A stretch of DNA of 58,765 bases from a virus (lineage: Duplodnaviria; Caudoviricetes), in the IMG/VR virus record IMGVR_UViG_3300031754_000005, positions 1 through 58,765 of that record; one strand, given 5' to 3'. Position numbers and translations under genes: made by a program. The stretch's first letter is position 1, and each line of letters starts with the position of its first letter. The notes under the pieces are model-generated. The model made no database searches, was not told where the DNA came from, and was given only the letters and a program-made list of their open reading frames with translations. This document shows positions 3,898-43,755 of this stretch, piece by piece.

Positions 3898-3907
3898 GGG
3901 ATGCGGC

Positions 3908-18574: not shown

Positions 18575-18769
18575 ATGACGCGCAGCTACACGATCGGCCC
18601 GGATTTCAGCACGATCACCTGCCGCTGGTGCGGGCTCACCAGCCACAATCTGCGCGATGTTGCCGAGCGCTATTGCGGGCGCTGCAACACTTTCCACGAC
18701 GATCTGCCGCCTCAAAACACCGCGCCGCCATCGCCCCCGAACGCAAACCCCTCCCAGCCGAGGGAATAA
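18575..18769 (+). CDS. Mini zinc-finger protein, antisense to the late operon
   Basis: ITCRWCGLTSHN ... YCGRCNTFH. Confidence 0.7.
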   Translation: MTRSYTIGPDFSTITCRWCGLTSHNLRDVAERYCGRCNTFHDDLPPQNTAPPSPPNANPSQPRE

Positions 18770-19596: not shown

Positions 19597-19597
19597 C

Positions 19598-20233
19598 TCA
19601 GCCTCGGTTCGCTTCGGCGGCGCCGGTTAATGCGGCCTCTTCCGCCCGTTCGATCTTCTCGACCGCCTCGCCCTCCCTGAGCGCACGCACCAGTTTTTCA
19701 CCGAGGCGCTTCACCACGAGCGAGACAAACGAGGCATCCCACAGGTTCGGGTCGGTGACCCGGCCGGTGTAGACCGCCAGCGCGCCCTTGAGGTTGGAGA
19801 GGATGACTTTCTGCTGCGCCGTCGCCGCGCCGTTGCGATCAATCAGCGAATTGTCGTTGTCGACGCGGAAGACCGCGGGCTTGGGATCGAGGTCGAACAT
19901 CGCCCCGGGCGGCGGGACGATCGCCTTCAGTTCGAGGCAATCGGCCGGGTAGCCGTACTGGTAGAGAAACCCCGGAGGGGGATATTGCGCCGACCACGGC
20001 TGTCCAGGGTTGTACCCGCCAGGCGGCGGCGGCCCCTTCAGGAGGGCGAGCGGGATATTGGCCCGCCGCGCCAGCGGAAAACCGCCGGCACGCAAGAGTT
20101 CGTCGCGCACCTGGCGGTAGACTTCCAGCGCCGCATCGGCCGCGCGCGTCCCCTCTTCGAGCGAGGCGATGCGCTCGGAATAGCCGATCTCGACAAGAGC
20201 CTGATTCACCAAATCTTCGGGCGCGACGGTCAT
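19598..20233 (-). CDS. Tail tubular protein A / adaptor ring paralogue 3
   Basis: DLVNQAL-IG, YQYGYPADC, VILSN, VTDPNLWDASF. Confidence 0.85.
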   Translation of the reverse strand: MTVAPEDLVNQALVEIGYSERIASLEEGTRAADAALEVYRQVRDELLRAGGFPLARRANIPLALLKGPPPPGGYNPGQPWSAQYPPPGFLYQYGYPADCLELKAIVPPPGAMFDLDPKPAVFRVDNDNSLIDRNGAATAQQKVILSNLKGALAVYTGRVTDPNLWDASFVSLVVKRLGEKLVRALREGEAVEKIERAEEAALTGAAEANRG

Positions 20234-20234
20234 C

Positions 20235-20870
20235 TTACTGCCGCTGCGCCGCGGCTGCCGCGCGTGCCATCAATTCCGGCATCATCGGCCCGGTCATATC
20301 GCCGACATCGGCTGCTTCGCCGATCATCTGCTCGGCCATTCCGGCACGGGTGCGCGCGAGGTTGATGTCGTCGCGCAGGGCAAACGAGAAGAGCTTTGCC
20401 AGGAGCGCGACAAAGGCCTGGGTAAAAGCCGCGTTCCACGTCAGGGGGTCGGTGATCTGCGCATAGTAGCCGCAGACTGCGGCGGCCTGGTTGGTCGCGA
20501 TGACCTTGGCCGGGGTGCCGAGCGTCGAGTCGTTATAGGTCTTGAACCGCACCGGCTGCGGGTCGTTGTTCGGGTTCGGGATCGTGCCGTGGACATAGGC
20601 GATGCGCAGCGCGTCGGCCGGGTAGTTGTATTCCTGGCTGAACCCGAGAATTTTCGCGCCGCCGGCGGTCGGGGTCAGCGCCACCTCGCGAAACGAAAAA
20701 TCCCAGTCCTGCGATTGCAGGAGACCGTCGCGCGCCGGGCCGTAGACCTCGACCGCGACGCGCGAGGCGCGCGAGCCTTCGTAAATTTCAGCAATTGCGC
20801 GCGGGTAACCGCAGGCGCGCAATGCCGCATTGATGCAATCCTCGGGACTGGCATAACCGACCGCCATCAC
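20235..20870 (-). CDS. Tail tubular protein A / adaptor ring paralogue 2
   Basis: DCINAAL-x-CG, WDFSFR, EYNYPADALR, VIATN, ITDPLTWNAAF. Confidence 0.85.
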   Translation of the reverse strand: MMAVGYASPEDCINAALRACGYPRAIAEIYEGSRASRVAVEVYGPARDGLLQSQDWDFSFREVALTPTAGGAKILGFSQEYNYPADALRIAYVHGTIPNPNNDPQPVRFKTYNDSTLGTPAKVIATNQAAAVCGYYAQITDPLTWNAAFTQAFVALLAKLFSFALRDDINLARTRAGMAEQMIGEAADVGDMTGPMMPELMARAAAAAQRQ

Positions 20871-20890
20871 GTTACCTCAAATCGGTAAAA

Positions 20891-21448
20891 TCAGTTTTCG
20901 TCGACCAGTTCGGCGGTGTTGGCGTATTGCTCGGCCTCCGCCAGGAGCTCGCGGGCGAAGTCGGGCCGCCCAGCCAAGGCCATCGCGAGCGGATTGCTGA
21001 TCAGCCGCGCGACCGCCTCGATAAAGGCCGAGTCCCATTGGTTTTCGTTCGGCGTCGAGCTGGTGTAGACCGCGCTCGCATTTGCCTGGTTACTGACGAT
21101 GACCTTGGCCGCGAGCCCGTTGTCAAAGGCGAGCGCGCCGCGCACCGGCTGCGGATCGTTGACGTTGTAGCTGCCGGCCTGCGGGCGCAGCTGGCGCAGC
21201 CGCAGACAATCGGCCGGGTAGGTATATTCATGCGTCCACGGCGGGGGGATCGTGCCGCCCGCCGCGCTCAGCACATCGGTGCGCCGGGCAAAGGCCGGGT
21301 CGAGCCGGCGCAGCAGCAGGTTGACCGCCGGCGCGTAGATGACCTGGGCGGCGTTGCCGGCGACCGAGCCGTCGTTCAGTGCGGTGATCTGGACCTGGAC
21401 GCCCAGGAGCTCCAATGCTCTGTTTACGACGTCGGTCGAGGTTGGCAT
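20891..21448 (-). CDS. Tail tubular protein A / adaptor ring paralogue 1
   Basis: DVVNRAL-LLG, FARR, WTHEYTYPADCLR, VIVSN, WDSAF. Confidence 0.85.
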   Translation of the reverse strand: MPTSTDVVNRALELLGVQVQITALNDGSVAGNAAQVIYAPAVNLLLRRLDPAFARRTDVLSAAGGTIPPPWTHEYTYPADCLRLRQLRPQAGSYNVNDPQPVRGALAFDNGLAAKVIVSNQANASAVYTSSTPNENQWDSAFIEAVARLISNPLAMALAGRPDFARELLAEAEQYANTAELVDEN

Positions 21449-21458: not shown

Positions 21459-23363
21459 TCAGCAGTGGGTCACAATCCCATTCGTCACAGCATAGGAGCC
21501 GCCTGGCGCTCCTGCACACGTCACCCCCGCGATCCCGTTGGCGTAGTAAATTCCGGCTGCGTTGATCGTGCCGAGGCCCTTGTCGCCACCGGGCGGTGCG
21601 CCAAGCTGCAGCCCGGGGCCAAGAGCGGCAAGGGTCGTCGCGGCCGAGGCGCCGGTCTTTTGCAGCCAGCTAAAGCTCGGGGCGGCCAGGGTATCCGCAT
21701 TCCAGAAATTGACCGCGTGGTCGCCCGCAAAATGCTGCGTGATGGCGCTATGGAGCGTGCCCGAGGCGGGATAGATGCCAAAGTAGTTGCTTACTTCGAC
21801 AATGCCGTCTCCGCCGATACCGGCGCCGACCAGCAGAGCGTTGCTGAGCGTCGTCAGGCCGCTGGTGCTGAAGGACGCGATATTGGAGGCACCGCTGCCC
21901 AGTGTCTGAATCTGCAATGCGTTATCGATTGCAACCAATCTTGTACCATGGGCTTGATCGGTCACATCGCTGCGAATAGCAAACCCGGGAATATCGGAGC
22001 CGTCGTAAGTCCAACCGATTTCATATTGCCGCGGTATGTCGAGCACCATCGGTTCGGCCTGCGCGGTAAGAGAACCGGCGCCAAACACAATGCCGCGATT
22101 GGCGGTAGACCCGGTGCCGAAAGTCACATCGAACTTGGCGCCGGTGCCAGCACCACTCGACGACAACTGCGCAACCGGGCTGGAGGGATTGACGGTATAG
22201 GTCCCGGCGGTAGAGATCACCGCGCTGGTAACTATGCCGTTTGCGCCAACCGAAGTTACCCTCAGCACCCCGGCAACCGATGAAACGCCGCCCGCCAGAG
22301 TGATCGTGTCGTTCACCGCATAGCCGGTGCCGGCAGCGTTGACATCGCTGACGGATTGGAGTCCGGCGCCCTGCCCCTGATTGGTGATCCCGATAAAAGT
22401 CGTCAGCGAGTTCGGCGAGGAACCGCCGGCGCTCGTAACCAATTCGCCGCCCGCCCCAAGCCACAAGGCTGCGGTTGTTCCTGCATCGCCCAAATTATAA
22501 GGGCTGACGGTTATCGCATTGCCAAAGTTGGCGACCTCGATTTCAACACCGAGGACAGCGCCGGCCGAGGGATAGCGGGCGGCGGCATGATAGGCGCCTT
22601 CCGCCCCTAAACTGCTGTTGGCAATCCCGATCGTTGCAATGGGGAGACACGCAGCCTGGCTGAAACTTCCCCTCGCATCGCTTGAACGGCAGGCAAAGGC
22701 GCCGCCGATGCCGCCGATCGTGCTGTAGGATTCAAACTGGCTGTAGTCGTCGTAATAGAGGTATCCGCCGTTGGCGAATTTACCCAGCCAGGTCAGATCG
22801 TTCGGCAAATTGGTTGCGCTTTGTGCGCCGCCGACCAGGAGGCGGTCCCGTATGCTCCAGACATTTGCCGGTGGGATATTGGTCCAAAAACCGGCCGGTA
22901 CAGCGGGTGCATTTCTTGCAATGCTGTTCGACAGCAGCGTATTGGTGCACGCCGAGAGTGTGCCGTTGATCAGAAAATTGCAGGTCGGTGCCGCCCCGCC
23001 GCCGATGCTGTCGAGCGTGATGAGGCCGTTGCCGTTGCCGTCAAAGCCGAATTTGAATTCGCTGAAGGGGCCCGTCGCATACCCGCTGTAGAGCGCCAGC
23101 GACTGCCCGCTGTTAACCAGCGGCATCCCGGTCGGCAGCGTCCCGGGCTGATTGTTGTTGGCTGGCGCGCCGCCGGCCAGCGTCGGCCCGCCGGCATCCA
23201 GCACGCAGTTGCTGCCGGCATACATCAGGAGATGACCCGCCGTCAGCGCGCCGCAGTCGCGCAACGCGCCCTGCGCCCTTGCCGGGGCAAGCGGGAGCAG
23301 CATTGCGGGCGTTACCAGGACAAGAAAAAAGGCCGCCACGAGGGCGGCCCGAAAGCGGCGCAT
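21459..23363 (-). CDS. Fibre/receptor-binding-like protein with signal peptide
   Basis: MRRFRAALVAAFFLVLV...PARA-Q; Gly/Ser/Thr-rich; GGDKGLGTINA motif; 8 Cys in 4 close pairs. Confidence 0.75.
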   Translation of the reverse strand: MRRFRAALVAAFFLVLVTPAMLLPLAPARAQGALRDCGALTAGHLLMYAGSNCVLDAGGPTLAGGAPANNNQPGTLPTGMPLVNSGQSLALYSGYATGPFSEFKFGFDGNGNGLITLDSIGGGAAPTCNFLINGTLSACTNTLLSNSIARNAPAVPAGFWTNIPPANVWSIRDRLLVGGAQSATNLPNDLTWLGKFANGGYLYYDDYSQFESYSTIGGIGGAFACRSSDARGSFSQAACLPIATIGIANSSLGAEGAYHAAARYPSAGAVLGVEIEVANFGNAITVSPYNLGDAGTTAALWLGAGGELVTSAGGSSPNSLTTFIGITNQGQGAGLQSVSDVNAAGTGYAVNDTITLAGGVSSVAGVLRVTSVGANGIVTSAVISTAGTYTVNPSSPVAQLSSSGAGTGAKFDVTFGTGSTANRGIVFGAGSLTAQAEPMVLDIPRQYEIGWTYDGSDIPGFAIRSDVTDQAHGTRLVAIDNALQIQTLGSGASNIASFSTSGLTTLSNALLVGAGIGGDGIVEVSNYFGIYPASGTLHSAITQHFAGDHAVNFWNADTLAAPSFSWLQKTGASAATTLAALGPGLQLGAPPGGDKGLGTINAAGIYYANGIAGVTCAGAPGGSYAVTNGIVTHC

Positions 23364-23530
23364 CAGCGCCTCCGGTTTATTGCGTGATTGCGGGTGAGGG
23401 GAGTGTGGGGCGGCCGATCGACAAAGCGCCGATCAAGCCACGGCGATCAGCAGGAGCAGCAGGAAGAGGCCGGCATCGGCGAGCGAGACGACGATAAACA
23501 TCGCCCGCCTCCGGTGTTGCTCCGGCGCGA

Positions 23531-23911
23531 TTATTTCGGCGCCGGCTCGGCTGCCGGCGGCTCCGGCGTCGGCGACACCGCGGCCGGTGCCGGCGTGGGG
23601 AGCCCGCAGGCCACTCGATCGCCACACCAGGCGGCAAAGCTCGCCTGCCACTCAGCCTCGCGCCTGGCGCGGGCCGCTCGCGCGTCCTGGTCAAAGGCGC
23701 GCAATTCGCTTTCGCGCAACGCGATCAGCGCTGCCTGCGCGGCGATTGTCTTGGCCGATACCTCGGGATGCGGGTCGCTCGGCACCTGCGGCACCTGCGC
23801 CGCGGGCGGCACCGCCTGGCTCCAGGCCGCCGGACCCAAGGTAACCAGGCCGAAAAGCAGCGCGGCGCTGAGCACAGCGAAGATCACGCCCTCTGAAATA
23901 ATCCTGCGCAT
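23531..23911 (-). CDS. Exported or membrane-anchored coiled-coil protein
   Basis: Hydrophobic N-terminus ending AAWS-Q, coiled coil, WCGDRVAC. Confidence 0.65.
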   Translation of the reverse strand: MRRIISEGVIFAVLSAALLFGLVTLGPAAWSQAVPPAAQVPQVPSDPHPEVSAKTIAAQAALIALRESELRAFDQDARAARARREAEWQASFAAWCGDRVACGLPTPAPAAVSPTPEPPAAEPAPK

Positions 23912-24006
23912 CGGTCTTTCCTCTCGCTGTTGCGCCATGGAATGGATCGTCAGTGCTGTAGCCGAACGCCATCCAGAAGAGGCGGCGCCGGCGAGTATTG
24001 CCGCCG

Positions 24007-26898
24007 CTAAAACGCCGACCCGAAGGCAAAGCGCGGATAGGTGTTCCAATCTGGCGTCCCTACCGAGTTCATCCGCGTGTTGGCATCGGTGATCAGTGCG
24101 TCGACCGCTGTCCCGTCGAGCGCGGTGATGCCCTGCGCCTTGAGGCGGTTCCACAGGGCGCGCCCGTTGGCGATGTAGGCGTTTGCGTTGTTGGCGCTGA
24201 CGACGCCCGTCGAGGTCACGCTGGTCGGTTGCGGCAGCACGTAGGCCGGCTGGAAGGCGGTGTTGAACGTGCCGCTGGTGTGGCAGCCGCTCGGCGTCGC
24301 CCCACTCGGTGGCGGCAGCGCAGCACCACCGACGGTCGCCGACAGGTCGAACGTGTAATTGCTGCCCCCGGTGTTGACCGTGTTCTTCAGGTAATACGGC
24401 GTGTCCGCCAGGTAGCCGCAGATCACGCCCTGGAAATTACCGTAGAGGAACTTGTCGCCATCGGTCGGCGTCCACCCGGTCGAGCTGGCGTTGGAGAGGC
24501 TGATCATCGGTGAGGATGCCGCCCAGGTAACCGGGCCGGGCACGGACGGCCCCCACTGCGCGTCGGACGAGATCATCGCATTGGCGTTCGACGCGCCCGT
24601 ATCGCTGCCGTTGACGTTGTGCTCGGTGTAGCCGTTGAGCGCCCAGCCGGAGAAGGTGGTCTGGTAATAGAGCCCCTTGGTCGCGAAGTTCTTCGCCCAG
24701 GTCTTGCAGTCGGCGTTGTTGTAAAGGTCCGCCGCCCAGGCGGCGATATGAGCGTTGTAGAAGAACTGCCAGCTTTCGCCCAGCAGCACGTCCTTGATGC
24801 TGTTGTCGCTGTTGAATTCCCCCATCGTCCAGTAGCCTTTGGCGATGGCGTAGGTGCCGAGGTTCGGCAGCGCCTGGTTGACCGGCCAACTGCAATTGGC
24901 CGCCGTCAGATCGTCGTACAGCTTGCCGATGTGCGACCCGTCGAAATAGGGATCTGGCGCCACCCGGCCGGCCAGCATCTCGCGGCGGAACGACCAGGCG
25001 GCATCGCGGTTCTCGGCGTCGCGCGCGGTAGCGATGCCGTAGGCGGCGACCGGATAGAGCGGGTTGCGGTGATTGGTCCCGCCGCCGACGTGCATCTGTC
25101 CGCCGAGTGCCGCCTCGATCCCGAGGTCGAGCACGAAGGCTTCGCCCGTCAGGAGATAGGCGTAGATAAAATTCTCGGAGCAGTGCGAGCAGTCGGCGTC
25201 GTCGAAGACGTACTGATAGGTGCTGGAGGGCGGCGGGGTCCACGAACCGTTTGGCCCCGGCCCAAAGCCGCTCCAGCGAAACTGTTGCTGGGCCGAGGAC
25301 GGCGCGGGCACCGGGTCGGTGCCGCCGGAATAGGTCGTGTTGGTCAGATTGGGATACTGCCGGGTCGCGTGGTCCCGGAAATTCATCCCGTCATGCACCT
25401 GCGACAGCGCGACCTGCCGCACCATCACGTCGTCAATCTGGTCCTGAATGTAGAAGTGACGCATCGCACCCGGCCAGAGCGGGCCGACATCGGCGTCGCC
25501 CGTGGTGTGGCGATCCGACGGCTGCGGGCCGATCGATGCCGAGTTCCACGCATAGGGCGCGCCGCCGTTGCAGGAACTGGCCTGCGCCACACACTCGTTG
25601 CTCGTCACGGTGCCGATCTGCGCAAGGTCGATCGGCCCCAGGACGTGCGACTTCTCCCAATAGGTCTGGTTGAACTTCGGCCTCAGGCGCGGGTCGGCGG
25701 CAATGCTGCCGGCGCCCTGGAAGAAGCGGCTGCGCACCGTCGTCGGGTCGGCGTCGACGATCGAGCCGAAATGCACGACGGCAAAAGCCGGGTTGAAGGT
25801 GTGCGTCCCGGTCCCGGCATCGCTCGGCGTCACCACGCCGCCGCCGATGCCATTGGTTCCGAAGGTCGCATTATGACTGGTGCTGCTGGAGACCGAGGCG
25901 AAGTAAAGCGTGTTTGCATCGAGCCCGGTCGGCAACGTGCCGGTGGTCGTCACGTAACCGGCGAGAATCTGATTGCCGGCCCCCACCTCGACGCCGAAAT
26001 AAAACGGATTGGTCGCGCCGGCCAGGACGAAGTTCGGTGATCCGCCCGTTGCGGTGAAAGTCGTCGCGGTCGGCAGCGTTGCGAAGTTTACCGTCGCCGT
26101 GCCGCTGCCGCCGGGGCCGACCGTCGTGTAGGAGATGGCGGAAAAGGCCCGGACGTTCTTGGCCGGCGTGTCGTAGTTGTACCACGGCTGGGTGATCCGG
26201 CCCCACTTCAGGAAGCCACCAAGAGCGCCCCCGGAGGCGGTCAATGCCGTGACGTACTCGTAATCCTCGAGCTGGCCGTGGGCCGTGCCGTCCTTGGTCG
26301 GCGACAGGTGGACGAGGTAGCGATCCTCGCGTCCGCACCCGCCGTCGAGCGTGTTGAACTGTTCGGCGTTGTTCGACCCCGATATTGTCGGGTCGTCGAG
26401 CCAGGCCCCCTCGTTGACGATGTTGGCGCCGGTGATCGGCGCGGCCGTCGCGTTGACGACGTAGTTCTGCGAATAGACCTCGGATCGTGCACGCGAGCCC
26501 GCCGCGGGCCACGAGCCGCCGGCCTGGATGTGAATTGTCGCGGAGGCGTTGTTGGCGGTGCTGGGAACCTTGCAAACCAGAAACATCGCCGTCATCAGGC
26601 TGCCGTCCTGCCCGGTCTCGTCCCAAGCGCGCTTTGCGCCCCAGGAATATGGCAGCACGTTGCCGCTGTCGTCCTTGAACACCGGCGCCTGACCGGACGG
26701 GATGTCGCCCTGCTTGAACGGGTGGGCGAAACGAACAAAGCCGTTGCCGATCGTGCTGCCGCTCTCGTTGACGACGGTCATCGTCGTCAGGTCACTGGGT
26801 GGGGTGCCATTGCTCCCACCACCACGAAGCAAGAAGGCATTGCCCGACCAGGGGGCAACAACAGCAGCAATAAAGACCAGTGCAGCGAGGGTGCGCAT
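24007..26898 (-). CDS. Large signal-peptide protein, possible polysaccharide depolymerase / spike
   Basis: MRTLAALVFIAAVVA; FAHPFKQGDIP ... W ... DGSL N-terminal pattern recalling rhamnogalacturonan-lyase-like proteins; aromatic-rich helical core. Confidence 0.65.
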   Translation of the reverse strand: MRTLAALVFIAAVVAPWSGNAFLLRGGGSNGTPPSDLTTMTVVNESGSTIGNGFVRFAHPFKQGDIPSGQAPVFKDDSGNVLPYSWGAKRAWDETGQDGSLMTAMFLVCKVPSTANNASATIHIQAGGSWPAAGSRARSEVYSQNYVVNATAAPITGANIVNEGAWLDDPTISGSNNAEQFNTLDGGCGREDRYLVHLSPTKDGTAHGQLEDYEYVTALTASGGALGGFLKWGRITQPWYNYDTPAKNVRAFSAISYTTVGPGGSGTATVNFATLPTATTFTATGGSPNFVLAGATNPFYFGVEVGAGNQILAGYVTTTGTLPTGLDANTLYFASVSSSTSHNATFGTNGIGGGVVTPSDAGTGTHTFNPAFAVVHFGSIVDADPTTVRSRFFQGAGSIAADPRLRPKFNQTYWEKSHVLGPIDLAQIGTVTSNECVAQASSCNGGAPYAWNSASIGPQPSDRHTTGDADVGPLWPGAMRHFYIQDQIDDVMVRQVALSQVHDGMNFRDHATRQYPNLTNTTYSGGTDPVPAPSSAQQQFRWSGFGPGPNGSWTPPPSSTYQYVFDDADCSHCSENFIYAYLLTGEAFVLDLGIEAALGGQMHVGGGTNHRNPLYPVAAYGIATARDAENRDAAWSFRREMLAGRVAPDPYFDGSHIGKLYDDLTAANCSWPVNQALPNLGTYAIAKGYWTMGEFNSDNSIKDVLLGESWQFFYNAHIAAWAADLYNNADCKTWAKNFATKGLYYQTTFSGWALNGYTEHNVNGSDTGASNANAMISSDAQWGPSVPGPVTWAASSPMISLSNASSTGWTPTDGDKFLYGNFQGVICGYLADTPYYLKNTVNTGGSNYTFDLSATVGGAALPPPSGATPSGCHTSGTFNTAFQPAYVLPQPTSVTSTGVVSANNANAYIANGRALWNRLKAQGITALDGTAVDALITDANTRMNSVGTPDWNTYPRFAFGSAF

Positions 26899-29640
26899 TT
26901 ATGACGTTTTTACCGAATAGAGCGAGCATGATCCGGTGTTGATGTTGCCGCTACTGGAATGGACGCGAAGACCCGTCACCGCATTGGTGTCGCCGGTATA
27001 GGTCCCGCCGATAGCAAGCATCTGGTAGATCGAGCCCTGGGTAAACCCATCGCTTATTCCAACAACATCATGATACACGGCCCCTACCAAATTAAAGAGA
27101 TCCCATCTTCCTGAAGTTCCTCTCGTAGTCGCCATCTGGCCAACGCGAGCCAGCGGGATACCGCTGTCGCTATTCGAGCCGAGATCGACGGCGGTGCCGC
27201 CGTTCTGCATCCCCGGCCCGTTCCACGCGTAATTCGCGGTCTGATAGGTAGGTGTCCCGCCGGTGCCGAATTGCAGGTAGAGCGTGACGGCGCTCGTCGC
27301 CGTGATCAGATTGCGACAGCGCAACTCGTAATCGGTCCCGGTAAGTGCCCCCGAGGTCGAGCTATCGAATATCAAGTCCGTCGCGGTATTGCTGGCGGTT
27401 TGCGTCGAGATGAAGGTTGTCGCACCCCCGCCGCTAGCGGTCTGATATGTCGGGTCAGCGGCCGCGCCATTGCTGGTCAAAACCTGCCCAGCCGTGCCCG
27501 CCGCCGTGGCATTGATCCCCGAGCCGGTGCCGAGAAGGATGCCGTGGTTGGTATAGGTGCCGGTGGTGATGCCGTAATATTCGTCGACGACGATGACGCC
27601 GGCATTGCCGGCAAGCCCCGCCGTTGCGCCCGCGCCAGCCGTGCCGGCTGCACCGACCGTATAGGTGTACGTCGCCCCGGGCGTGACGATGATCTGCTGC
27701 AAACACTCGCCGCCGCCGCCGCCGCCCGAGCCGCCAGTCAACACCGAGGCGCTGTTGACGCCGTTTGCGCCCGCGCCATTGTTGCTCGCCGTCGCGGCCT
27801 GGAAGGCGCCGAGAAAGCTGTCGCCGCCGACGCCGCCCGCCACTTGGGCGATCGCACCGACCACATTGCCGCCATCGCCAGCATCCCCGCCGGTGATGCG
27901 GAACCCGCCGGTGCCGAGCGCGCCGGTGCCGCCCTGACCGCCGACCCCGCCGGTGCCGCCGGTGGTCGAGGTGGTGCCGGTGCCGCCGGTGCCGCCGATC
28001 GCGGTGACGCTATTGAAGGTCGTCGTACCGCCGGTGCCGCCGGTGCCAGCGCCGGCCCCGAGGCCGCCCGAGCCAGCACCCGCGCCGCATTGCGTGACGA
28101 TCAGCTTATTAGCGTTGGCGGGCGTCGTATAGGTCGCCGCTGATCCGGTCGTGAAGCGCTGCCGGGTCAGCGCCTGCGAGGTTCCTCCGCCCCCCGATGA
28201 ACCACAAGAAAATGCGTCGCTCGACTGCGTGTAGTTGAGATGGCTGCCGCCGGTATCGGTGCAGTCCGGCACGACCTTGTAGGTGCTGGCACCGGCAACG
28301 TCGACCGGGATGGCGTGGCTCGCAGCACCGGTGCCGAGCTGGGCCACCGAGGCTGCGCCGGACAGATCGGTGAACGCCGGCTGCGAGGCGTGCGGCACCC
28401 CGGCGACGATGCTGTCGAGAAAATTGTGCGATACGGCCGCCAGCGACAGCCCGACGCCGTACACCGTCGTTGAGGAAACCACCGACCCGGGTTGCCAGTC
28501 GAGCGTGGAACCATTGGAGAGCAAACAGCCGCCCAAACCCGGCAGGATAGACAGGCTGGTTCCCGTCACCCCGCCGGGGAAGTTGATCGTCGGCGTGCTC
28601 GACAGGGTGATTGTCCCGGTGCCCTGGTTCTGGTAGCAGGCGAACATCCCATTGGCGAAGATCGTCGCGCTGATCGCCGGGGCGGTGAGCGTCCACCCGG
28701 TGCCGGTCAGATTGACCGTGCCGCCCATGTCCCCCGCCGCGAAGGGATAGTTGGCCGACTTCGTGCTGTCGGGAACGCCGGGGAGATCGGCAGCAGCAAG
28801 CGCACGGAAGGTCGGATTAGCGGCGCTGCCCGAGGACGGCCCGGATAATACGGTGTTGGCCGTCTGGGTCCCGAGCGCGGTCCCGAGGTTTGTCGCCGTC
28901 GGCGTGCCGAGGAATGTCGCGACGCTCGTGCCGAGGCCGCTTACATCGCTCCCGATCCGCACCGTGCAGGTGTTGTTCGCACAGACGATCGTCTTGTTGG
29001 TCAGCGTCTCGGTGCCGGCCAGGGTTGAAAGCGTCTTGTTTGTGCCATCGGACGGTGGGCCGGTGATGACTGTCGTGCCGCTCGGCGCCGGATACTTCCA
29101 ACTGGTGATCGCGGCGCCGGCCTGGATATCGCACTGAAAACCGCCGGCATTGGGAACAAAGCAGCCGATACCGTGATCTGCTGTGGTGCCCGAGGTCGTG
29201 TTGAACCCAGCCCAAAGGTACGGGCTCGCGTTCGCTGCGATCAGCGGCAGCAGAACAGCGGTGCTGTTGAGATAGCTGCCCGTGCCGGTGCTGTTCAGTG
29301 TCAGCGAACCGAAAGCGAGATTGTCGGTTACCGCGCCGATCGTATAGGTCGAACCAAGCGACATCGCGCCCGGCGCGCTCAGCCCGACCCCCGCTCCGGC
29401 ATTGAGGGTGATGCTGCTGCTGCCGCCGCCGACAGCCGGAATCCATTTTGTCAGCGCGGCATTATAGGTCAGCACCAGGCCGTCGGTCGGCGCGTGGACG
29501 CCCGTCACCGCGACATCGCTGAGGGTTGAGAGACTGCCGGCGCCGCCCTGGAGTTGCGCGCGGGCGGCATTGGGCGCGAGCAGCAGAAATACCGCCAGCG
29601 CCGCGACAGCCAGAATTTGCCGCGTGGGGCTAGCTCGCAT
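26899..29640 (-). CDS. Glycine-rich tail-fibre-like protein with signal peptide
   Basis: MRASPTRQILAVAALAVFLLLAPNAARA-Q; LSDV, TLTNKT, poly-Gly, GQVLTSNG fibre motifs; 12 Cys. Confidence 0.8.
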   Translation of the reverse strand: MRASPTRQILAVAALAVFLLLAPNAARAQLQGGAGSLSTLSDVAVTGVHAPTDGLVLTYNAALTKWIPAVGGGSSSITLNAGAGVGLSAPGAMSLGSTYTIGAVTDNLAFGSLTLNSTGTGSYLNSTAVLLPLIAANASPYLWAGFNTTSGTTADHGIGCFVPNAGGFQCDIQAGAAITSWKYPAPSGTTVITGPPSDGTNKTLSTLAGTETLTNKTIVCANNTCTVRIGSDVSGLGTSVATFLGTPTATNLGTALGTQTANTVLSGPSSGSAANPTFRALAAADLPGVPDSTKSANYPFAAGDMGGTVNLTGTGWTLTAPAISATIFANGMFACYQNQGTGTITLSSTPTINFPGGVTGTSLSILPGLGGCLLSNGSTLDWQPGSVVSSTTVYGVGLSLAAVSHNFLDSIVAGVPHASQPAFTDLSGAASVAQLGTGAASHAIPVDVAGASTYKVVPDCTDTGGSHLNYTQSSDAFSCGSSGGGGTSQALTRQRFTTGSAATYTTPANANKLIVTQCGAGAGSGGLGAGAGTGGTGGTTTFNSVTAIGGTGGTGTTSTTGGTGGVGGQGGTGALGTGGFRITGGDAGDGGNVVGAIAQVAGGVGGDSFLGAFQAATASNNGAGANGVNSASVLTGGSGGGGGGECLQQIIVTPGATYTYTVGAAGTAGAGATAGLAGNAGVIVVDEYYGITTGTYTNHGILLGTGSGINATAAGTAGQVLTSNGAAADPTYQTASGGGATTFISTQTASNTATDLIFDSSTSGALTGTDYELRCRNLITATSAVTLYLQFGTGGTPTYQTANYAWNGPGMQNGGTAVDLGSNSDSGIPLARVGQMATTRGTSGRWDLFNLVGAVYHDVVGISDGFTQGSIYQMLAIGGTYTGDTNAVTGLRVHSSSGNINTGSCSLYSVKTS

Positions 29641-30298
29641 CTTCCTCGGCCTCGATTTCGATATCGAAAACCGCGCCGGTCGGGAGCGCCGCGCCATTCA
29701 TGTTGAGATAAAGAAAATCGAGGGCGCCGCGCAGGACGCAGGCGTTGCGGTCGAAGAGCCAGACCAGATCGGTGGCCGCGACGCCCGAGCCGGCGGCGGC
29801 GAGCTGCACCCGCCCGGCTCCCGCCAAGCCGCCGACCTGCGCCCCGAGCGACCCCGGATTGGCGGTGCCGATCGTCGAGACGACCGCCGTTGCCGCGGCG
29901 TAACTGGTGTCGGCTTTGAAGGCGGTGAGGGCGGTGCGCACGAGGCTTGTCGTGTCGGCGACCGAGCGGCGAACGAGCTGCGCCGGCATGTTGCCCGCGG
30001 CGGTCGCGACCCCGCCCACCTTGATGCGGCGGATCCGGATCGTCTTTGTGGCGCTGCCCTGGATCTCGAGGACATCGGTCGGCGTCGCGACCGCCGCAAA
30101 TCCGAGGACCGCATAACGGTAGCCGGGTTTCAACCCCTCCGAAGAGACCGGCAGCGCGACAAGGCCGGGTGCGAGCGTGAATTTGTTGCCGAGCTGGTCG
30201 GCTGGAACGACAGAGGGCGCCCAGTTGCCGCCGACGGCGTTGATGTCCATCGAATAGGGGGCGCCGTTCTTGTCGGTGACGAGAAACGGGCTGCTCAT
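29630..30298 (-). CDS. Putative virion structural protein (beta-rich)
   Basis: Position in late operon; alternating hydrophobic strands; no signal peptide. Confidence 0.7.
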   Translation of the reverse strand: MSSPFLVTDKNGAPYSMDINAVGGNWAPSVVPADQLGNKFTLAPGLVALPVSSEGLKPGYRYAVLGFAAVATPTDVLEIQGSATKTIRIRRIKVGGVATAAGNMPAQLVRRSVADTTSLVRTALTAFKADTSYAAATAVVSTIGTANPGSLGAQVGGLAGAGRVQLAAAGSGVAATDLVWLFDRNACVLRGALDFLYLNMNGAALPTGAVFDIEIEAEEDAS

Positions 30299-30547
30299 CG
30301 GCTCAGAACCCCAGGATCAGCGGATAAAAGGGATTGCTCGGCGGGGCGGGAAAAACCTGTGCGCCGATCGGCGTTCGCGGGAGGCAGAAGAGGCAGTAAA
30401 TCGCGCCGGCGCTCGTCTGGTCCGGCACTCCGGCCAGCCCCTGTTGGGTCACGCCAGCGGCGGCGGAGATGCCGGGCGATTGCTGCGGCTGCGGGGTAAC
30501 CCTGCCGCGGTTCATCGGCGCCCCCGCAATTCGCTCCGGCAGAATCG

Positions 30548-30577
30548 AAAGCGCCCGCCCCGACCGGCGGGCGCTTT
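30548..30577. terminator. Bidirectional hairpin terminator
   Basis: AAAGCGCCCGCC-CCGACC-GGCGGGCGCTTT. Confidence 0.7.
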
Positions 30578-30617
30578 GATCGGGCGCCCTATCTAGGGCG
30601 TAAATAGGGCCTGGTTT

Positions 30618-30977
30618 TTAGGGGCCGGGAGCGGTCGGCGCCGGCTGCTGGGTGAGGCTGGCGGGGCCGAGAGTGATGTCGCCCGGGGCGGCCGGCACCG
30701 GATAGTCCACGGTGAGATCGACCGCCACATCGCCCGTGGAGTCGGTCACTTCGACCTTGATCCCGAGCGTGTTGGCATCGGGGAGCGTCGCGGCCTTGAC
30801 GACGAGTTCAGGGCTGCCATCGGCGGCGGCGTTGACCGTAGCCAAGACGGCCGGGCTGGTGGATGTGGCGGTGAACACTTCCCCAGCGGGGAGCGGTTCG
30901 GTTTGGCCGGTGGCCGGATCGACGATGGAGAGAGGCCACGTGTAGACATCGGTCGGCTTCAAGGTGATCGTGATCAT
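30618..30977 (-). CDS. Ig-like / beta-sandwich small protein
   Basis: Thr/Val/Pro-rich with TSTSPAV motif; AGGAG RBS. Confidence 0.65.
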   Translation of the reverse strand: MITITLKPTDVYTWPLSIVDPATGQTEPLPAGEVFTATSTSPAVLATVNAAADGSPELVVKAATLPDANTLGIKVEVTDSTGDVAVDLTVDYPVPAAPGDITLGPASLTQQPAPTAPGP

Positions 30978-31390
30978 GGGCCGGCTCCTCTTGGTGCGGG
31001 TTGCGTGCTGACGACCATATGGTCGACATCGAGGACTATCGCACGGCGGCGCGGCCGGTCGAGAGTCGCGTCAATCACCTCTTCGACCACCTCCTCGATC
31101 ACGGCTTCGATCTTTGCGTGGTGCGCGCCGACCTGGTGGAGGAGGAGCCATACCGTCTCGCCGGCCCGGCGGAAGACGCCATCGTGAAACGCGGCGGCGA
31201 GGAGGTGATAGGGCAGCGGCTCTTCATCGGGGTCGCCCGACGGCGGCGGTGCGCCGGGAGCGCCGATCGTGCCGGTGCCGTCCGCCGGGTTGCCGGTGCC
31301 GTTCAAACGCTCGATGTGGGTTTGCTTCCCGTATTCGCTCTTATCGCGCAGCGCATTCGGCACGGTGGATCCCGGCCTCGCATCACTCAT
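30974..31390 (-). CDS. Hypothetical protein
   Basis: Overlapping start/stop with neighbours. Confidence 0.6.
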   Translation of the reverse strand: MSDARPGSTVPNALRDKSEYGKQTHIERLNGTGNPADGTGTIGAPGAPPPSGDPDEEPLPYHLLAAAFHDGVFRRAGETVWLLLHQVGAHHAKIEAVIEEVVEEVIDATLDRPRRRAIVLDVDHMVVSTQPAPRGAGP

Positions 31391-31676
31391 CGTCGTCGTC
31401 CTCGTCGTTTTCGAGGCGCAGCTTCTCGATCTGAATTTCGACGCGCTGCCCGCTGCCGTCGTCCGAGACGCTGGTGACGCAGCCAAAGCAGCGCAGATCG
31501 ATCTCGTCGCCGACCTTTGGCAGCGGCAGTTGCGCCTTTTCGAGTTCGCGGCCGGTCAGGCAAATGCGCGTGCCGTAGGGATACTGGGGCTTCTCAGCGA
31601 TGGCTGGGCTCGCCTGGTCCGCCATCTCCTCATCATCGTATTCGAGGTTGATCAGCGGCCCCCATTTCGCCATCAC
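31383..31676 (-). CDS. Capsid staple protein (epsilon15 gp10-like)
   Basis: YPYG-x-x-I-L ... ELEK ... P-VG ... VTSVS ... VEIQI signature. Confidence 0.78.
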   Translation of the reverse strand: MMAKWGPLINLEYDDEEMADQASPAIAEKPQYPYGTRICLTGRELEKAQLPLPKVGDEIDLRCFGCVTSVSDDGSGQRVEIQIEKLRLENDEDDDDE

Positions 31677-32203
31677 GCGCCTCCCGCGGCGGCCATCGCC
31701 GGCGCCGGCGGTTCGGGTGCCGGCGCACCGGCCGCGCCGGCTGGGCCCGCGCCCGCGCCTGCGGCGCCGAGCAACTCCGCCTCATGCTTCATATTGAGGG
31801 TGTGGCGCTCGTGGTGGTGGCGCTCGGCCATGTCCTTGTGGCGCTTCTCATGGTCGCCGACGAGGCCGTGCTTTTCGTGCTCGTGGGTGCGGTGCAACCC
31901 GACGGTCGCGGCATGGTCGGTCATGCCCGCGTGTTCGCTCTCGTGCCGCGCATCCATCGAGCGGTGTTCGTCGCGCTGGCGGTTGTGCTCGTTGCGCCGC
32001 TGACCCTCGTGCTCGACGCGCAACCCCTCGCGCTCGCCGGCGTGCCGCTTCAGCATCTCGCCGCCGCTGGAAGGCGTGTCGCCGCCCGCCTTGTGTGCCG
32101 CGGGCTTGCCGGCGGTGCGCTTCTCGCGGGCGCTCGTCATCTCCGGCGAATCGTAGAGGTCCTCGCCGCGCGACTTCTTCGCCGGCTTTTTTTCGTCGGC
32201 CAT
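31673..32203 (-). CDS. Histidine-rich helical protein
   Basis: 19 His in 176 aa, repeating H-x-x-E pattern; GGAGG RBS. Confidence 0.75.
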   Translation of the reverse strand: MADEKKPAKKSRGEDLYDSPEMTSAREKRTAGKPAAHKAGGDTPSSGGEMLKRHAGEREGLRVEHEGQRRNEHNRQRDEHRSMDARHESEHAGMTDHAATVGLHRTHEHEKHGLVGDHEKRHKDMAERHHHERHTLNMKHEAELLGAAGAGAGPAGAAGAPAPEPPAPAMAAAGGA

Positions 32204-32439
32204 CAAGGCCCTCCGTGTGCTAAGGGAATGCCGCTGCGGCGGCGCGTGAGCGTAGGGAAACCAGCGGTCGTAAAGTTTACCGGCAGCCGTTTTTACCGCG
32301 ATCGAGCCGGCATCGGTTGCGGGAGGCAAGCCGCGGGAACAGCCGAGTGCGCATCAAGGCTGGCGACCAAGCCCGGTAGGACCCTCCCCGTGTGGTGCTG
32401 GCTGTAATCGGGAACGTCGCAGCAAATTGGTCAGGCGGA

Positions 32440-32448
32440 TGCTATGCT
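32440..32448 (+). promoter_or_regulatory. Extended -10 promoter for the tRNA
   Basis: TG-C-TATGCT 11 nt before the tRNA 5' end. Confidence 0.45.
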
Positions 32449-32459
32449 GGCTCTCGAGT

Positions 32460-32549
32460 GCCCGTGTGGCGAAACTGGTAGACGCGGAGGGCTTTAAACC
32501 CCGCCTGCCCCGCAAGGGCTTGTCGGTTCGAATCCGACCACGGGCACCA
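32460..32549 (+). tRNA. Type II Leu-like tRNA with anomalous anticodon loop (TTA suppressor reading or 8-nt loop)
   Basis: Acceptor GCCCGTG/CACGGGC-A-CCA, D arm GCG-AAACTGGTAGA-CGC, variable arm GCCC/GGGC, T-arm GTCGG-TTCGAAT-CCGAC; loop CTTTAAA(C). Confidence 0.9.
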
Positions 32550-32552
32550 ATT

Positions 32553-32861
32553 TTAAGCGCAGCGCCCGTAGCCCTCTTCAAAGGCGCGGCGCGGGCTGAT
32601 CGAGCGGTAGCCGTCGCGATAAAATAAGAGGAAATCGCCGGCGATCGGCATGTAGCGCCGCACCAGAATGCTCTCGACCAGCATCGGGGCAAATCCGCTG
32701 TCCTCAGCGAACGACAGAACCACGCCGCCATCGGCGCGCGGCTCAATCTTGGCAATCCTCAACGCCCAGACTTCCTTGTGCGACTTGTAGCGCGGCGGTG
32801 TCGAGGTGCCCCCCGCGGTCGTCGGCAGATCCGGGCCGGCGTCAATCACAGCAGCCTCCAT
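32553..32861 (-). CDS. Small phage protein (YKSHK-V-AL-I ... GD ... Y-DGY-S-SP-x-x-x-FEEGY family)
   Basis: Characteristic motif; paralogous to 3619-3897. Confidence 0.75.
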   Translation of the reverse strand: MEAAVIDAGPDLPTTAGGTSTPPRYKSHKEVWALRIAKIEPRADGGVVLSFAEDSGFAPMLVESILVRRYMPIAGDFLLFYRDGYRSISPRRAFEEGYGRCA

Positions 32862-33129
32862 CGCACTCGCCCTGGCCGCCGAGGCATTTGCAGCGCCGGG
32901 CGAACTCCTCGGCGACTTCGCGGGCGGCCGAGCCGGCCCGCGGCGGGCGCAGCGGCAATATGCCGGAGAGGCCCGGCCCGACATTGCCGAGGCGGCGTTT
33001 TGCTGCGGCATCGATATTGCCCGCCCCGCCGCAGGTGCCGCAGATTTCAGCCCCGAGCCGCACCAGCGTGTCGACCGCCCTGTCGCGCGGCACGAGGCCG
33101 CCCTTGCACGCCGGGTTTGGGCATTTCAT
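32842..33129 (-). CDS. Small Cys-rich zinc-finger-like protein
   Basis: CPNPACKG and CGTCGGAG; ATGA coupling. Confidence 0.6.
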   Translation of the reverse strand: MKCPNPACKGGLVPRDRAVDTLVRLGAEICGTCGGAGNIDAAAKRRLGNVGPGLSGILPLRPPRAGSAAREVAEEFARRCKCLGGQGECDGGCCD

Positions 33130-33368
33130 CGGGATGCTTTCGAAGACGGATGGTCGTAAAACCCGCCGTGGTGCCAGCTTGCCATCGTCTTGGCGCGAGC
33201 CGCATCGCGGCGAATCGCGGGATTGCTCGATCCCGCCGCCGCGGCGAGCCGGCTCTGTGGGATTTTCTGCCCCTCGGGCACGCCGAGCTCGCGGTGCAAT
33301 TTTCCCTTGGAGCCGCCCGGGTGGAATTCGGCTTTTGGTATCCAGCCCTTTGGCTTTTTCTCCGCCAT
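33126..33368 (-). CDS. Small basic protein ending HGGFYDHPSS
   Basis: GKLHRELGVPEGQKIP motif; Lys/Arg-rich. Confidence 0.72.
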   Translation of the reverse strand: MAEKKPKGWIPKAEFHPGGSKGKLHRELGVPEGQKIPQSRLAAAAGSSNPAIRRDAARAKTMASWHHGGFYDHPSSKASR

Positions 33369-33409
33369 CCCGGTGCTCCGTGACGCGAGGTCGAGCAAAT
33401 TGGGCGAGG

Positions 33410-33604
33410 TCAACGCTTTGCGCTCGATGGATGGTCGTAGAAACCGCCGTGCTTCGTGCGCTGCGGTTTGCCGTCCTTGACCCGCTCGGGCAATTTGCCG
33501 CCCGGATCGGCGTCCGCGAATTCCTTCGCGGCGCGGCCTTCCTTGGTCGGCTTGTCCTTGTTGGCAAAGGCCCAGCGCCGCTGCGCCTGCGAGACGTCCG
33601 GCAT
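33410..33604 (-). CDS. Small basic protein ending HGGFYDHPSS
   Basis: MP-x-x-SQAQRRW ... AKEF ... KLPERV motif. Confidence 0.75.
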   Translation of the reverse strand: MPDVSQAQRRWAFANKDKPTKEGRAAKEFADADPGGKLPERVKDGKPQRTKHGGFYDHPSSAKR

Positions 33605-33607
33605 CGA

Positions 33608-34930
33608 CTACAGCTCGGCCGATGCCTGGATATTGGCCCCGCCGCCGGCGCCGACCAGCTGGCAGGCAAATCCTGCGGTCGTCGAAGCCGTCGTTGCCTG
33701 CAATGCGATCGTGTCGATGGTGTTGCCGATGACCGCATCCTGAATGAGGTAGGTCGAGGCCAGCACAACGGGCGTCACGGTCTTCGACAGGACGGCCCAG
33801 GTCGAGGTCGACTCGGCGGTGCCGCCGATGGTGATCGTCGGCGCGACCCGCATCGTCACCGGCAATTTGATCGCAACATCGCAGATCGTCGCGGTCATGT
33901 AGGCGCCGCCCTGGCTGACGATCTTGGAAGCGGCCGGCTCGACGATCTCGTAGAAATAGCGCTGCTGGAGGATCGTCTCGATCGCCTGGCTGCGCCGCTC
34001 GAAGGCGCTGCAGTTGACCTGACTGTTCGATTGGTTGTCGCAGGAATAGCCGGCCGTGGCGTTCGCCGTCAGCGCCGGGTTGCGCACCAGCGCGATGTTG
34101 CTGAAGGCGATGTAATCGTTGGTGCCGGCGGTGCCGACCGGCGTCCAGCACAAGGCAACGGCGATTTCGGTGGCGCCGGCGGGGATCTTGCCGACCGCCG
34201 CATAGCGGCCCAGCGAGGAGACGCCGCCAAGATTGATGACGGCCGCGGTCGCGTTGGCCTGGCCGGTCCAGCCACCCGAGCCGCCGCCGCCGGCATTAAG
34301 CCCGAACGCCACCGAGGCAGAGCCGGCGACACCCTCATCGGTGCCGGTCCCGGTGATGATGTAGGCCGTCATGTTGGCACCGGCGCCGGAGAAATTCGCC
34401 CCGGTCGCGGCGTGGAAATCGAGTTCGGCGTTCTGCCCCTGGAACTGATAGGCCTGTGCGCTTTCGACTTCCTGCAGCATGCACACCTGCACGACGCCGG
34501 TCTGGCCCGAGGTCCGGGCCATCTTGAAGGCGTATTTCGCGCCGGTCGGCAAGTCGCCCGCGGTCGAGTCGCGGCTGAGCGTCATCGCCGTCGAAGCGCC
34601 CGACCAATAGGCCCAGCGGTCGGGGCCGCCATAGGCGACGGTCGTCGTCTGGCTGGCCCCGGTCGTCGCGCGCTGGAAAAGGTTGGTCGTGGCATCGCCG
34701 CCGATCAGCGCATTCGACTTCCACGGCTGGCCGCCGACATAGCCGGCGAATTTCTGTGCCGTGGCGTAGTAGTTGCCGACGCCGATCGCGCCGTTCGGCA
34801 GATCCTGGATCAGGTCCGCGTCATTGAGCATCGATACCTGTGGCGGCGGATAGGTCTGCGCCAGCGCCGCCGCGGCGACAGCGAGCGCGGCGCAGACAAT
34901 CGTCGCGGCAAGCGGAATAAAACGCTTCAT
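33608..34930 (-). CDS. Signal-peptide beta-rich protein (carbohydrate-binding / fibre-head-like)
   Basis: MKRFIPLAATIVCAALAVAAAALA-Q; N-LIGG, DRW, FERRS...QRYF, MRVAPT, SAEL fibre-domain motifs; 6 Cys in mature part. Confidence 0.78.
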   Translation of the reverse strand: MKRFIPLAATIVCAALAVAAAALAQTYPPPQVSMLNDADLIQDLPNGAIGVGNYYATAQKFAGYVGGQPWKSNALIGGDATTNLFQRATTGASQTTTVAYGGPDRWAYWSGASTAMTLSRDSTAGDLPTGAKYAFKMARTSGQTGVVQVCMLQEVESAQAYQFQGQNAELDFHAATGANFSGAGANMTAYIITGTGTDEGVAGSASVAFGLNAGGGGSGGWTGQANATAAVINLGGVSSLGRYAAVGKIPAGATEIAVALCWTPVGTAGTNDYIAFSNIALVRNPALTANATAGYSCDNQSNSQVNCSAFERRSQAIETILQQRYFYEIVEPAASKIVSQGGAYMTATICDVAIKLPVTMRVAPTITIGGTAESTSTWAVLSKTVTPVVLASTYLIQDAVIGNTIDTIALQATTASTTAGFACQLVGAGGGANIQASAEL

Positions 34931-34994
34931 CGATGAAGCTCCTGAAAAAGGGGCGAAAAGGATCGCGGGCGAGCCCGGGCGGCGCGGCGGCGGC

Positions 34995-35552
34995 CTAGTA
35001 AAGCGGTCGGCAGAACGCGCGGATATCCGCGGTGGCGGCGGCGCCCTGCGCGGTCGTGAGATTGAAGTAAATCACCGGCAGATCGAGCGCGTTGGTTGCG
35101 CCCGCCGTGGCGATTGTCGCGCTCATCGCGCTGCCGGCCGCATCGTTGGCCGCCGAGGTCAATGTGGAATAGGCCTGCGTCGCCGCCACGAGCGCGACGC
35201 CGCCCTGGGCCGCTGCGGTATAGAACCCGCCCGCCGCTGTGGTCAGCGAGAGGCTGGCGTTGTTGATCGTGATCGCGTCCAGCATGTAGAGCGCGGAAGG
35301 CGCCGAAATCGGGATCGCCTGGTCGGCGCTCGCCGAATTGAAATTGGCGCCGGCGAGCTTGCCGCACTGGACACGCGCCGGGGCGTAGGATTGCCAAGGC
35401 GTCGTCGGGAATTGAAAGCCGGGCGAGACGCCGGGCGCCGCCTGCGCGCCATCGAGCATTGCGGCCAGCATGACCGGCAAACCCGCCAGCGCCAGGCCGA
35501 GAGCGAAGGAGAGGGCGGCCGGCAGCAGCCGCCGCCGCAAGGTATGTTTCAC
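34995..35552 (-). CDS. Signal-peptide beta-sandwich protein
   Basis: MKHTLRRRLLPAALSFALGLAL...AQA-A; ANFNS-x-x-DQAI, YF-LTTAQGAAATAD; 2 Cys. Confidence 0.75.
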   Translation of the reverse strand: MKHTLRRRLLPAALSFALGLALAGLPVMLAAMLDGAQAAPGVSPGFQFPTTPWQSYAPARVQCGKLAGANFNSASADQAIPISAPSALYMLDAITINNASLSLTTAAGGFYTAAAQGGVALVAATQAYSTLTSAANDAAGSAMSATIATAGATNALDLPVIYFNLTTAQGAAATADIRAFCRPLY

Positions 35553-43621: not shown

Positions 43622-43755
43622 CAGGCGAGGGCTTTCTTGCGCCGCTCAAAAGCCGCGCGATCGGCCTCTTCCTCGAAATTGCGCTTCTGGCGCAGCGGCG
43701 CCATCTGCTTCCCGTGCGCCGATTGGGTCAGGACCGCGACCGAGAATGCCCTCAT
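43621..43755 (-). CDS. 44-aa hypothetical protein (not in ORF track)
   Basis: ATG overlaps terL stop and TGA overlaps next ATG. Confidence 0.5.
   Translation of the reverse strand: MRAFSVAVLTQSAHGKQMAPLRQKRNFEEEADRAAFERRKKALA

Follow-up and report, generated by a model that had tools for sequence, protein, structure and literature searches.

Within the virus record IMGVR_UViG_3300031754_000005 of IMG/VR (Caudoviricetes), analysed over its full 58,765 bp and called the window below, six genes of the late operon, g1 to g6, encode proteins that begin with signal-peptide-like leaders. All six lie in the structural module, between the gene for the major capsid protein and those for the head-to-tail adaptors (Table 1). 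The fibres of tailed phages normally fold and attach in the reducing cytoplasm, and the morphogenesis of these phages is regarded as wholly cytoplasmic. Sequence comparisons indicate that five of the six proteins (g1, g2, g3, g4 and g6) are very probably exported and folded oxidatively in the periplasm, and comparative anatomy across related phages gives about an even chance that the exported parts join the particle once the inner membrane has opened.

Leaders and cysteines of the six proteins and their families

A first-pass annotation, made from the sequence letters without database searches, had described signal-like N-termini on six late-operon proteins. The six open reading frames (ORFs) are indeed present, all on the minus strand at the positions in Table 1, with Sec-type leaders recognised both by a heuristic of our own for n-, h- and c-regions and by eye. 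With starts corrected, each protein has a basic n-region, an uncharged hydrophobic stretch and a small-x-small site, and the first mature residue is glutamine in four of the six. The heuristic flagged these six ORFs and none of the 28 others in the late operon (one of the 28, at 14646-15175, was read out of frame). Two corrections to the listed starts were needed: the first ATG of g3 (29697) overlaps the upstream gene, so that M20 at 29640 is the likely start, and in the listed 207-residue ORF of g5 the G+C content at third codon positions (GC3) climbs only near codon 90, so that M82 (23911) is the likely start. The g4 start lacks a Shine-Dalgarno sequence, and GC3 is 0.53 across its first 30 codons. 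The leader of g1 carries RRRLL, to be compared with the motif S/T-R-R-x-F-L-K of the twin-arginine translocation (Tat) pathway; its homologue in the related locus L002 has RRAL and that in L086 has no RR, while the leader itself is kept in the homologues of L002, L086 and L022. Export of g1 would proceed via Sec or possibly Tat. Our recount of cysteines in the mature parts of g1 to g6 gave 2, 6, 12, 10, 2 and 8, identical to the counts first reported and even in six of six (chance by parity, 0.016).

The leader is a constant feature of the g2 family. There are 445 homologous proteins in the database, and 304 viral contigs hold g2 relatives; the family statistics given here describe the best 120 of the 445. 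Of these, 119 were flagged by the heuristic, and the remaining one has a hydrophobic leader without lysine or arginine. The aligned residue at -1 is alanine in 96, serine in 8 and glycine in 6, and glutamine occupies +1 in 86. Mature cysteines are even in number in all 120 (4 in 34, 6 in 41, 8 in 39 and 10 in 6), whereas signal-less proteins from the same phages, taken as a control, divide into 111 with even and 116 with odd counts. The alignment columns that hold these cysteines come and go together: the Jaccard index is 1.00 for columns 150/261 (occupied in 119 and 119 homologues), 297/307 (60 and 60), 341/352 (69 and 69) and 350/423 (47 and 47), and 0.94 for 387/412 (70 and 66). Cysteines that are gained and lost two at a time are the mark of structural disulfides, bonds that arise in the periplasm or the extracellular space and not in the reducing cytoplasm. 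Because its cysteine columns are gained and lost in pairs, the g2 family behaves as one whose cysteines form structural disulfides.

The N-terminal domain (N-domain) of g6 was followed across a wider collection. Residues 29-165, scored against 1.84 billion representative proteins, gave 63 matches in proteins of 138 to 1,097 residues that have the N-domain alone in common, and most of the 63 are matched from a residue between 19 and 33 onward, immediately behind a leader. Fifty were flagged as leader-bearing; by eye, the other 13 comprise three leaders without lysine or arginine, seven N-terminally cut sequences and three weak matches, and no full-length member without a leader was seen among the 63. 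Conservation within the family reaches at least 90% at A28 and A30, and Q31 does not vary. A leader could be placed in 37 of the 45 matches at E <= 1e-10, and 35 of these 37 have an even number of mature cysteines (p = 1e-8). The leaders first noticed in the window are kept in the homologues of g2 and in most relatives of the g6 N-domain.

The first mature glutamine that recurs in the window proteins and in both families recalls the 'Q-rule' of Bacteroidetes, yet the G+C content here is about 67%. A possible role for the conserved +1 glutamine is to form an N-terminal pyroglutamate cap.

Fibre-like architectures and their place beside the adaptors

Several lines of sequence and structure comparison support a fibre-like nature for g2, g3 and g6 at least. 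Pfam held no family for any of the six proteins, and PHROGs and Pfam together gave none for g1, g3 and g5. g2 resembles the tail fibre family phrog_4492 (E 9.5e-12), and its AlphaFold2 (AF2) model (predicted local distance difference test score, pLDDT, 68.6) contains two jelly-roll domains of carbohydrate-binding type; the model matches predicted phage tail fibres in BFVD (E 1e-24 to 1e-13, TMq 0.5-0.6) and, in the PDB, CBM4/CBM16 sugar-binding modules and CBA120 TSP4. A tblastn search of g2 against cultured phages gave no match. Leader included, g2 recurs in a second phage lineage (L006-L008, about 1-11,200), where it stands directly before the terminase gene and is 50-73% conserved; leader-bearing proteins of 700-1,030 residues with 8-26 cysteines are encoded upstream of it in these loci. 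The nearest neighbours of g3 in the Atlas are viral without exception, with Gly_rich_2, DUF5907 and Mtd_N among their domains, but a score of 0.84 makes this no more than a lead; tblastn of g3 against cultured phages returned a single match of 6%. The fibre motifs that the first-pass annotation had pointed out were located in these two proteins, with TLTNKT, GQVLTSNG and the glycine-rich tract in g3, and QRYF and the SAEL end in g2.

It is about as likely as not that g6 is the core fibre of the clade. Behind its leader, the protein has a conserved N-domain that starts at Q31 and extends to around residue 140; Hoc-like repeats occupy roughly residues 325-425, and the distal part varies. Cultured phages were matched in tblastn only through the Hoc-like repeats. 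The model of the N-domain (pLDDT 70.9) retrieved nothing from BFVD at E 0.001 or better, and the best hit of a wide PDB search covered 51 residues at Z 4.3, so that no fold can be named.

Related phages place leader-bearing proteins in the same part of the genome. Across 14 loci (L027 and L082 being one phage), 33 of the 42 ORFs of at least 300 residues between the capsid and adaptor genes have a leader, and the nine leaderless ones are mostly homologues of the signal-less p308, p185 and p143 or gene-call problems. The ORF immediately before the adaptor gene t394_d is leader-bearing in 13 of 16 relatives; in 11 of the 16, homology across the clade covers its first 130-200 residues, which fall into two subtypes, and the rest differs. 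The g6-type fibre is found one or two genes further upstream in L088 and L089, and in L089 it is the sole large leader protein in the stretch covered. Closer relatives share the gene order p222, g6-type fibre, adaptors, nozzle; p222 itself, a signal-less protein, is 61-64% identical in L085, L086 and L087 and is also present in L002. Among phages of equal capsid identity (54-59%), those with the g6 N-domain subtype have a t394_d that is 55-68% identical, as opposed to 36-40% in the others, a co-variation to be expected of a docking domain and its dock. Whether adaptor paralogues and leader proteins are linked in number was considered, and the idea was rejected: L089 combines three adaptors with one fibre, and L088 combines four with four leader proteins.

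The remaining proteins depart from this picture. g4 looks like an exported polysaccharide lyase-like protein and not a fibre: its Atlas model resembles PcRGLX-type lyase clusters (TM 0.57/0.73 over 635 residues), and its homologues P0208 and P0214 carry PF19501, while g4 itself had no Pfam match at E 0.01 (PF19501 and PF21345 included). It has no N-terminal anchor domain, with about 18 residues between leader and body, and the combination of a conserved N-terminal anchor with a variable distal part was not seen for it. Twelve g4 homologues were inspected by eye: four have a twin-arginine leader (P0204, P0207, P0209 and P0210, one of them on a 59-kb, phage-sized contig), one has a Sec-type leader, three have a long leaderless N-terminal extension and four show nothing clear. 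Since Tat and Sec leaders both occur on one g4-type body, export itself appears to be what is selected. g5 is, from its predicted features, a small helical, proline-rich protein that is membrane-tethered or periplasmic, and not a fibre; its N-terminal hydrophobic stretch spans 19 residues, an acidic residue lies in the n-region, the middle is helical, and the related loci contain no homologue. An assignment of g5 as a two-component i-spanin was tried and dropped: the anchor and helical part are present, but the overlapping frames contain no ORF with a lipobox. The proposal of the first-pass annotation that these are exported, oxidatively folded fibres therefore survives in part, in that the leaders are real and conserved, the cysteines are disulfide-like and g2, g3 and g6 are fibre-like, whereas g4 and g5 do not appear to be fibres.

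Genomic setting of the late operon

The window appears to be the near-complete genome of a temperate, soil-type podovirus resembling epsilon15 and Carin-1. IMG/VR rates the record at 91% completeness and classes it as linear. One integrase gene, however, is split over both ends of the window, and a complete genome in circularly permuted form is therefore the probable reading. The portal protein shares 34-36% identity with its counterparts in epsilon15, Cobetia phage Carin1 and Caulobacter Rauchvirus phages. A single adaptor copy is normal in podoviruses; here there are four Carin-1 gp46-like paralogues, and relatives have three or four. The adaptor matches PDB entry 8ck1_E (E 2.2e-13), which is named as the gp46 adaptor of Carin-1 in PMC13730344. 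As for the host, g2 was found in the genome collection on two contigs, both from metagenome bins, and 4 of 301 genomes in the family of one g2-bearing bin had a capsid match, with identity of 37-44% or weaker; the T7-like internal virion proteins and their SLT domain point to a diderm host.

The late operon runs on the minus strand from about 45.2 kb to 5.8 kb and is tightly packed, with overlaps of -11 nt and gaps of at most 167 nt. The operon region holds no sigma-70-like site, against 2.4 expected, for a consensus that may not suit this host, and 20 terminator-like sites against 13.4 by chance (standard deviation 4.2), an excess that is not clear. A 497-residue ORF at 14646-16139 on the minus strand overlaps the nozzle gene; its match to phrog_308, an internal virion protein family, is confined to the last part of the ORF (about 14646-15175), so that the real gene is short. 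At 4530-5775 (minus strand) and 1921-2349 (plus strand), after the internal virion protein genes, lie lysis or membrane candidates, one consisting of a single membrane helix with a long coiled coil and one of a leader with a second hydrophobic helix, together with a possible lipoprotein gene on the other strand. No endolysin was recognised in the window beyond the SLT domain inside the 984-residue internal virion protein.

On the strand opposite to the late genes, a tRNA gene specifies a tRNA that would read UAA. Its anticodon loop is CUUUAAA, the anticodon stem contains two non-standard pairs, and the minimum-energy fold favours an eight-base loop. TAA is the stop codon in 7 of the 36 genes listed. 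One of these TAA codons ends g3 and abuts the ATG of g4 in frame (26896-26901), and because the two are contiguous and in frame, read-through would yield a fusion of about 1,877 residues.

Table 1 Positions of the six leader-bearing genes and of other features in the window, in late-operon order with the integrase parts last
Feature	Position	Strand	Remarks
Large terminase	43752-45173	-	
Portal	41548-43389	-	phrog_332, E 1.8e-119
Protease		-	Between portal and major capsid protein in operon order
Major capsid protein	37776-38825	-	
g1	34995-35552	-	GTG start after GGAGG; 185 residues; 38-residue leader ending AQA; 2 mature cysteines
g2	33608-34930	-	ATG after AGGAG; 440 residues; leader end ALA, then Q25; 6 mature cysteines
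Class-II tRNA, anticodon UUA (reads UAA stop)	32460-32546	+	ARAGORN; Rfam RF00005, 46.2 bits; in late region, opposite strand
p222	29630-30298	-	Signal-less, 222 residues; no Pfam or PHROG family; directly before g6-type fibre in close relatives
g3	26899-29640	-	913 residues from M20; leader end ARA, then Q; 12 mature cysteines; glycine-rich tract
g4	24007-26898	-	963 residues; short leader ending GNA, then F; 10 mature cysteines
g5	23531-23911	-	126 residues; leader end AWS, then Q; 2 mature cysteines; proline-rich end
g6	21459-23363	-	ATG after GGAGG; leader end ARA, then Q31; 8 mature cysteines
Four tandem head-to-tail adaptor paralogues	18712-21448	-	Leaderless; directly after g6; phrog_394, E 1e-23 to 1e-29
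Nozzle / tail tube B-type protein	15179-18268	-	1,029 residues; leaderless; 11 cysteines; phrog_376, E 3.5e-140
T7-like internal virion proteins		-	One with SLT domain; after nozzle in operon order
Tyrosine integrase, N-terminal part	57963-58763	+	
Tyrosine integrase, C-terminal part	3-401	+	

A proposed assembly in two compartments and its alternatives

Under the explanation that we favour, g1, g2, g3, g4 and g6 would be translated with their N-terminal leaders, and Sec would carry them over the inner membrane, with Tat as a possible route for g1; signal peptidase I would cleave them at A-x-A, mostly ahead of glutamine, and the mature proteins would fold in the oxidising periplasm, where their structural disulfides would form. 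Meanwhile, a DNA-filled but fibreless particle, made of the leaderless capsid, portal, adaptors and nozzle, would be built in the cytoplasm. The g6-type protein would be the tail fibre, g2 and g3 further fibres, g4 a polysaccharide-cleaving module and g5 either a small helper tethered to the membrane or a lysis protein resembling spanins. Upon lysis, the opening of the inner membrane would bring the particle into contact with the exported parts, and the fibre would dock by its N-domain. Fibreless or spikeless particles are able to take up their fibres outside an intact cell, as in the in vitro complementation of T4 and P22. In its fullest form, this assembly in two compartments would have all host-recognition parts secreted, joined by Dsb-made disulfides, possibly capped by pyroglutamate and added at lysis, with a g3-g4 read-through fusion also possible, and we rate that complete scheme somewhat below an even chance.

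That the exported proteins would be virion parts is suggested by the lack of any other fibre candidate, by the g6-type protein, whose domain plan and gene position are those of a podovirus fibre, and by a precedent. No signal-less fibre-like gene was found by PHROGs or Pfam in the rest of the window, in agreement with the first-pass annotation. The precedent is Cellulophaga phage phi18:3 (NC_021794), whose gp085, gp086 and gp087, encoded in the fibre region, have Sec-type leaders ending before glutamine and are virion or tail proteins on tandem mass spectrometry (MS/MS) according to the record annotation, which also lists nine other MS-supported virion proteins that are leaderless. By contrast with the window phage, phi18:3 infects a host of the Bacteroidota, its proteins have no sequence relation to those described here, and gp085 to gp087 contain 0, 1 and 3 cysteines and hence no disulfide signature. 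T7 gp17 and P22 gp9 are modular proteins with an N-terminal particle-binding domain, no leader and cytoplasmic folding. The present system is like them in the conserved N-domain and exchangeable distal part of g6, in a gene placed by the tail genes and in several binders per phage, and unlike them in the leaders and in an N-domain that matches no solved fold. Filamentous phages export their virion proteins pIII and pVIII by Sec, with the disulfides of pIII made by DsbA, and assemble at the membrane by extrusion. Sec export, as well as the disulfides of pIII, would be shared with the candidate virion proteins known here from their genes, whereas the particle of the window phage is icosahedral, DNA-packaged and built in the cytoplasm. 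Exported lysis proteins (signal-bearing and signal-arrest-release (SAR) endolysins, the T4 antiholin RI and spanins) are also made late and routed through Sec before lysis (PMC8951688); the window set differs from them in its receptor-binding architectures.

The same leaders would be found if the proteins were exported but never became part of the virion, along the lines of the host-surface adhesins that the first-pass annotation gave as its alternative. Their site of action would then be the periplasm or the surface of a cell that is infected or lysogenic, where they would bind or cut envelope polysaccharide, so that the receptor is masked or destroyed, superinfecting phage are excluded and progeny are kept off debris, while host recognition by the particle would fall to the nozzle or to a signal-less protein that has escaped recognition. 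This is the main rival, which we rate well below an even chance, yet it has real attractions: the textbook problem of topology vanishes, g4 is PcRGLX-lyase-like with a short link from leader to body and four homologues that have Tat leaders like bacterial periplasmic enzymes, and g2 combines a carbohydrate-binding-type fold with the identity noted above over two phage lineages. Exported prophage 'moron' proteins encoded among tail genes, such as Lom and Bor of lambda, provide a model for it, Lom in particular. Phages of Porphyromonas gingivalis also have leader-bearing proteins without an assigned function, with cleavage predicted before glutamine, which have been read as modifiers of the host surface (PMC10367356). 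These proteins, like the morons, are small and not fibre-like, whereas those of the window reach 440-963 residues, are fibre-like and modular, and come from genes for which no promoter-like site was found. An exclusively cellular role would, moreover, leave a near-complete genome without any fibre or spike recognised by PHROGs or Pfam; it sits uneasily with the modular receptor-binder anatomy of the g6-type gene and its fixed place by the adaptors throughout the clade, with L089, where that protein is the sole large accessory protein, with the tight packing of the genes in a late operon in which no promoter-like site was found and terminator-like sites are not clearly above chance, and with the annotation of leader-bearing proteins of phi18:3 as virion parts.

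It is considerably less probable that the leaders are uncleaved N-terminal anchors that hold the fibres on the periplasmic side of the inner membrane, from which particles would pick them up or where they would act. The length of the hydrophobic stretch and the acidic n-region residue of g5, the 38-residue leader of g1 and the AF2 model of the g6 leader as one long helix would agree with anchoring; the nearly invariant small residues at -3/-1 in the g6 family, a conserved domain that starts exactly at +1 and the presence of alanine, serine or glycine at -1 in 110 of the 120 g2 homologues argue for cleavage. The idea that wrong starts or chance hydrophobic N-termini adorn ordinary cytoplasmic fibres is largely refuted and can be given very little credence. 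The first-pass annotation had itself raised the prospect of better downstream starts, and the first ATG of g3 and the listed start of g5 did prove wrong, with the leaders remaining after correction; for g4, too, the coding statistics of the leader are weak and a Shine-Dalgarno sequence is missing. Downstream starts would, however, truncate conserved mature sequence in g2 (from Q25) and g6 (from Q31), the leader is present in 120 of 120 g2 homologues and most g6 N-domain relatives, and the pairing of cysteines goes far beyond chance.

Several observations weigh against the addition of exported fibres to the particle at lysis, or against the strength of the evidence for it. The leaders were judged by our heuristic and by eye, and the parity counts are not independent events, as homologues share kinship. 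The co-variation of adaptor and g6 N-domain could reflect the inheritance of neighbouring genes as a block, and the fold searches in BFVD and the PDB gave the N-domain no recognisable particle-binding fold. Conservation of g2 at 50-73% across lineages would be unusual for a fast-evolving receptor binder. g4 lacks an anchor, is similar to secreted bacterial enzymes and is leaderless in around half of its homologues. Finally, the fibre of Caulobacter phage SR18, a distant relative in culture, is of the ordinary kind and has no signal.

Our literature search found no description of exported fibres in tailed phages, although subscription journals and supplement tables, which may list leader-bearing fibre genes, lay outside it. 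Secreted phage fibres would represent a new twist on a known class of fibres, and the sizes of the g2 family suggest a widespread habit and not an oddity. If the favoured explanation is true, the folding and stability of such fibres, as well as the engineering of their host range, would hinge on Sec, signal peptidase and Dsb, and recombinant fibres from these phages would require periplasmic expression. Annotation pipelines that drop leader-bearing genes as "host-like" would miss receptor binders. The last step of assembly would be coupled to the timing of lysis, in conflict with the textbook view of a tailed-phage morphogenesis that takes place wholly in the cytoplasm.

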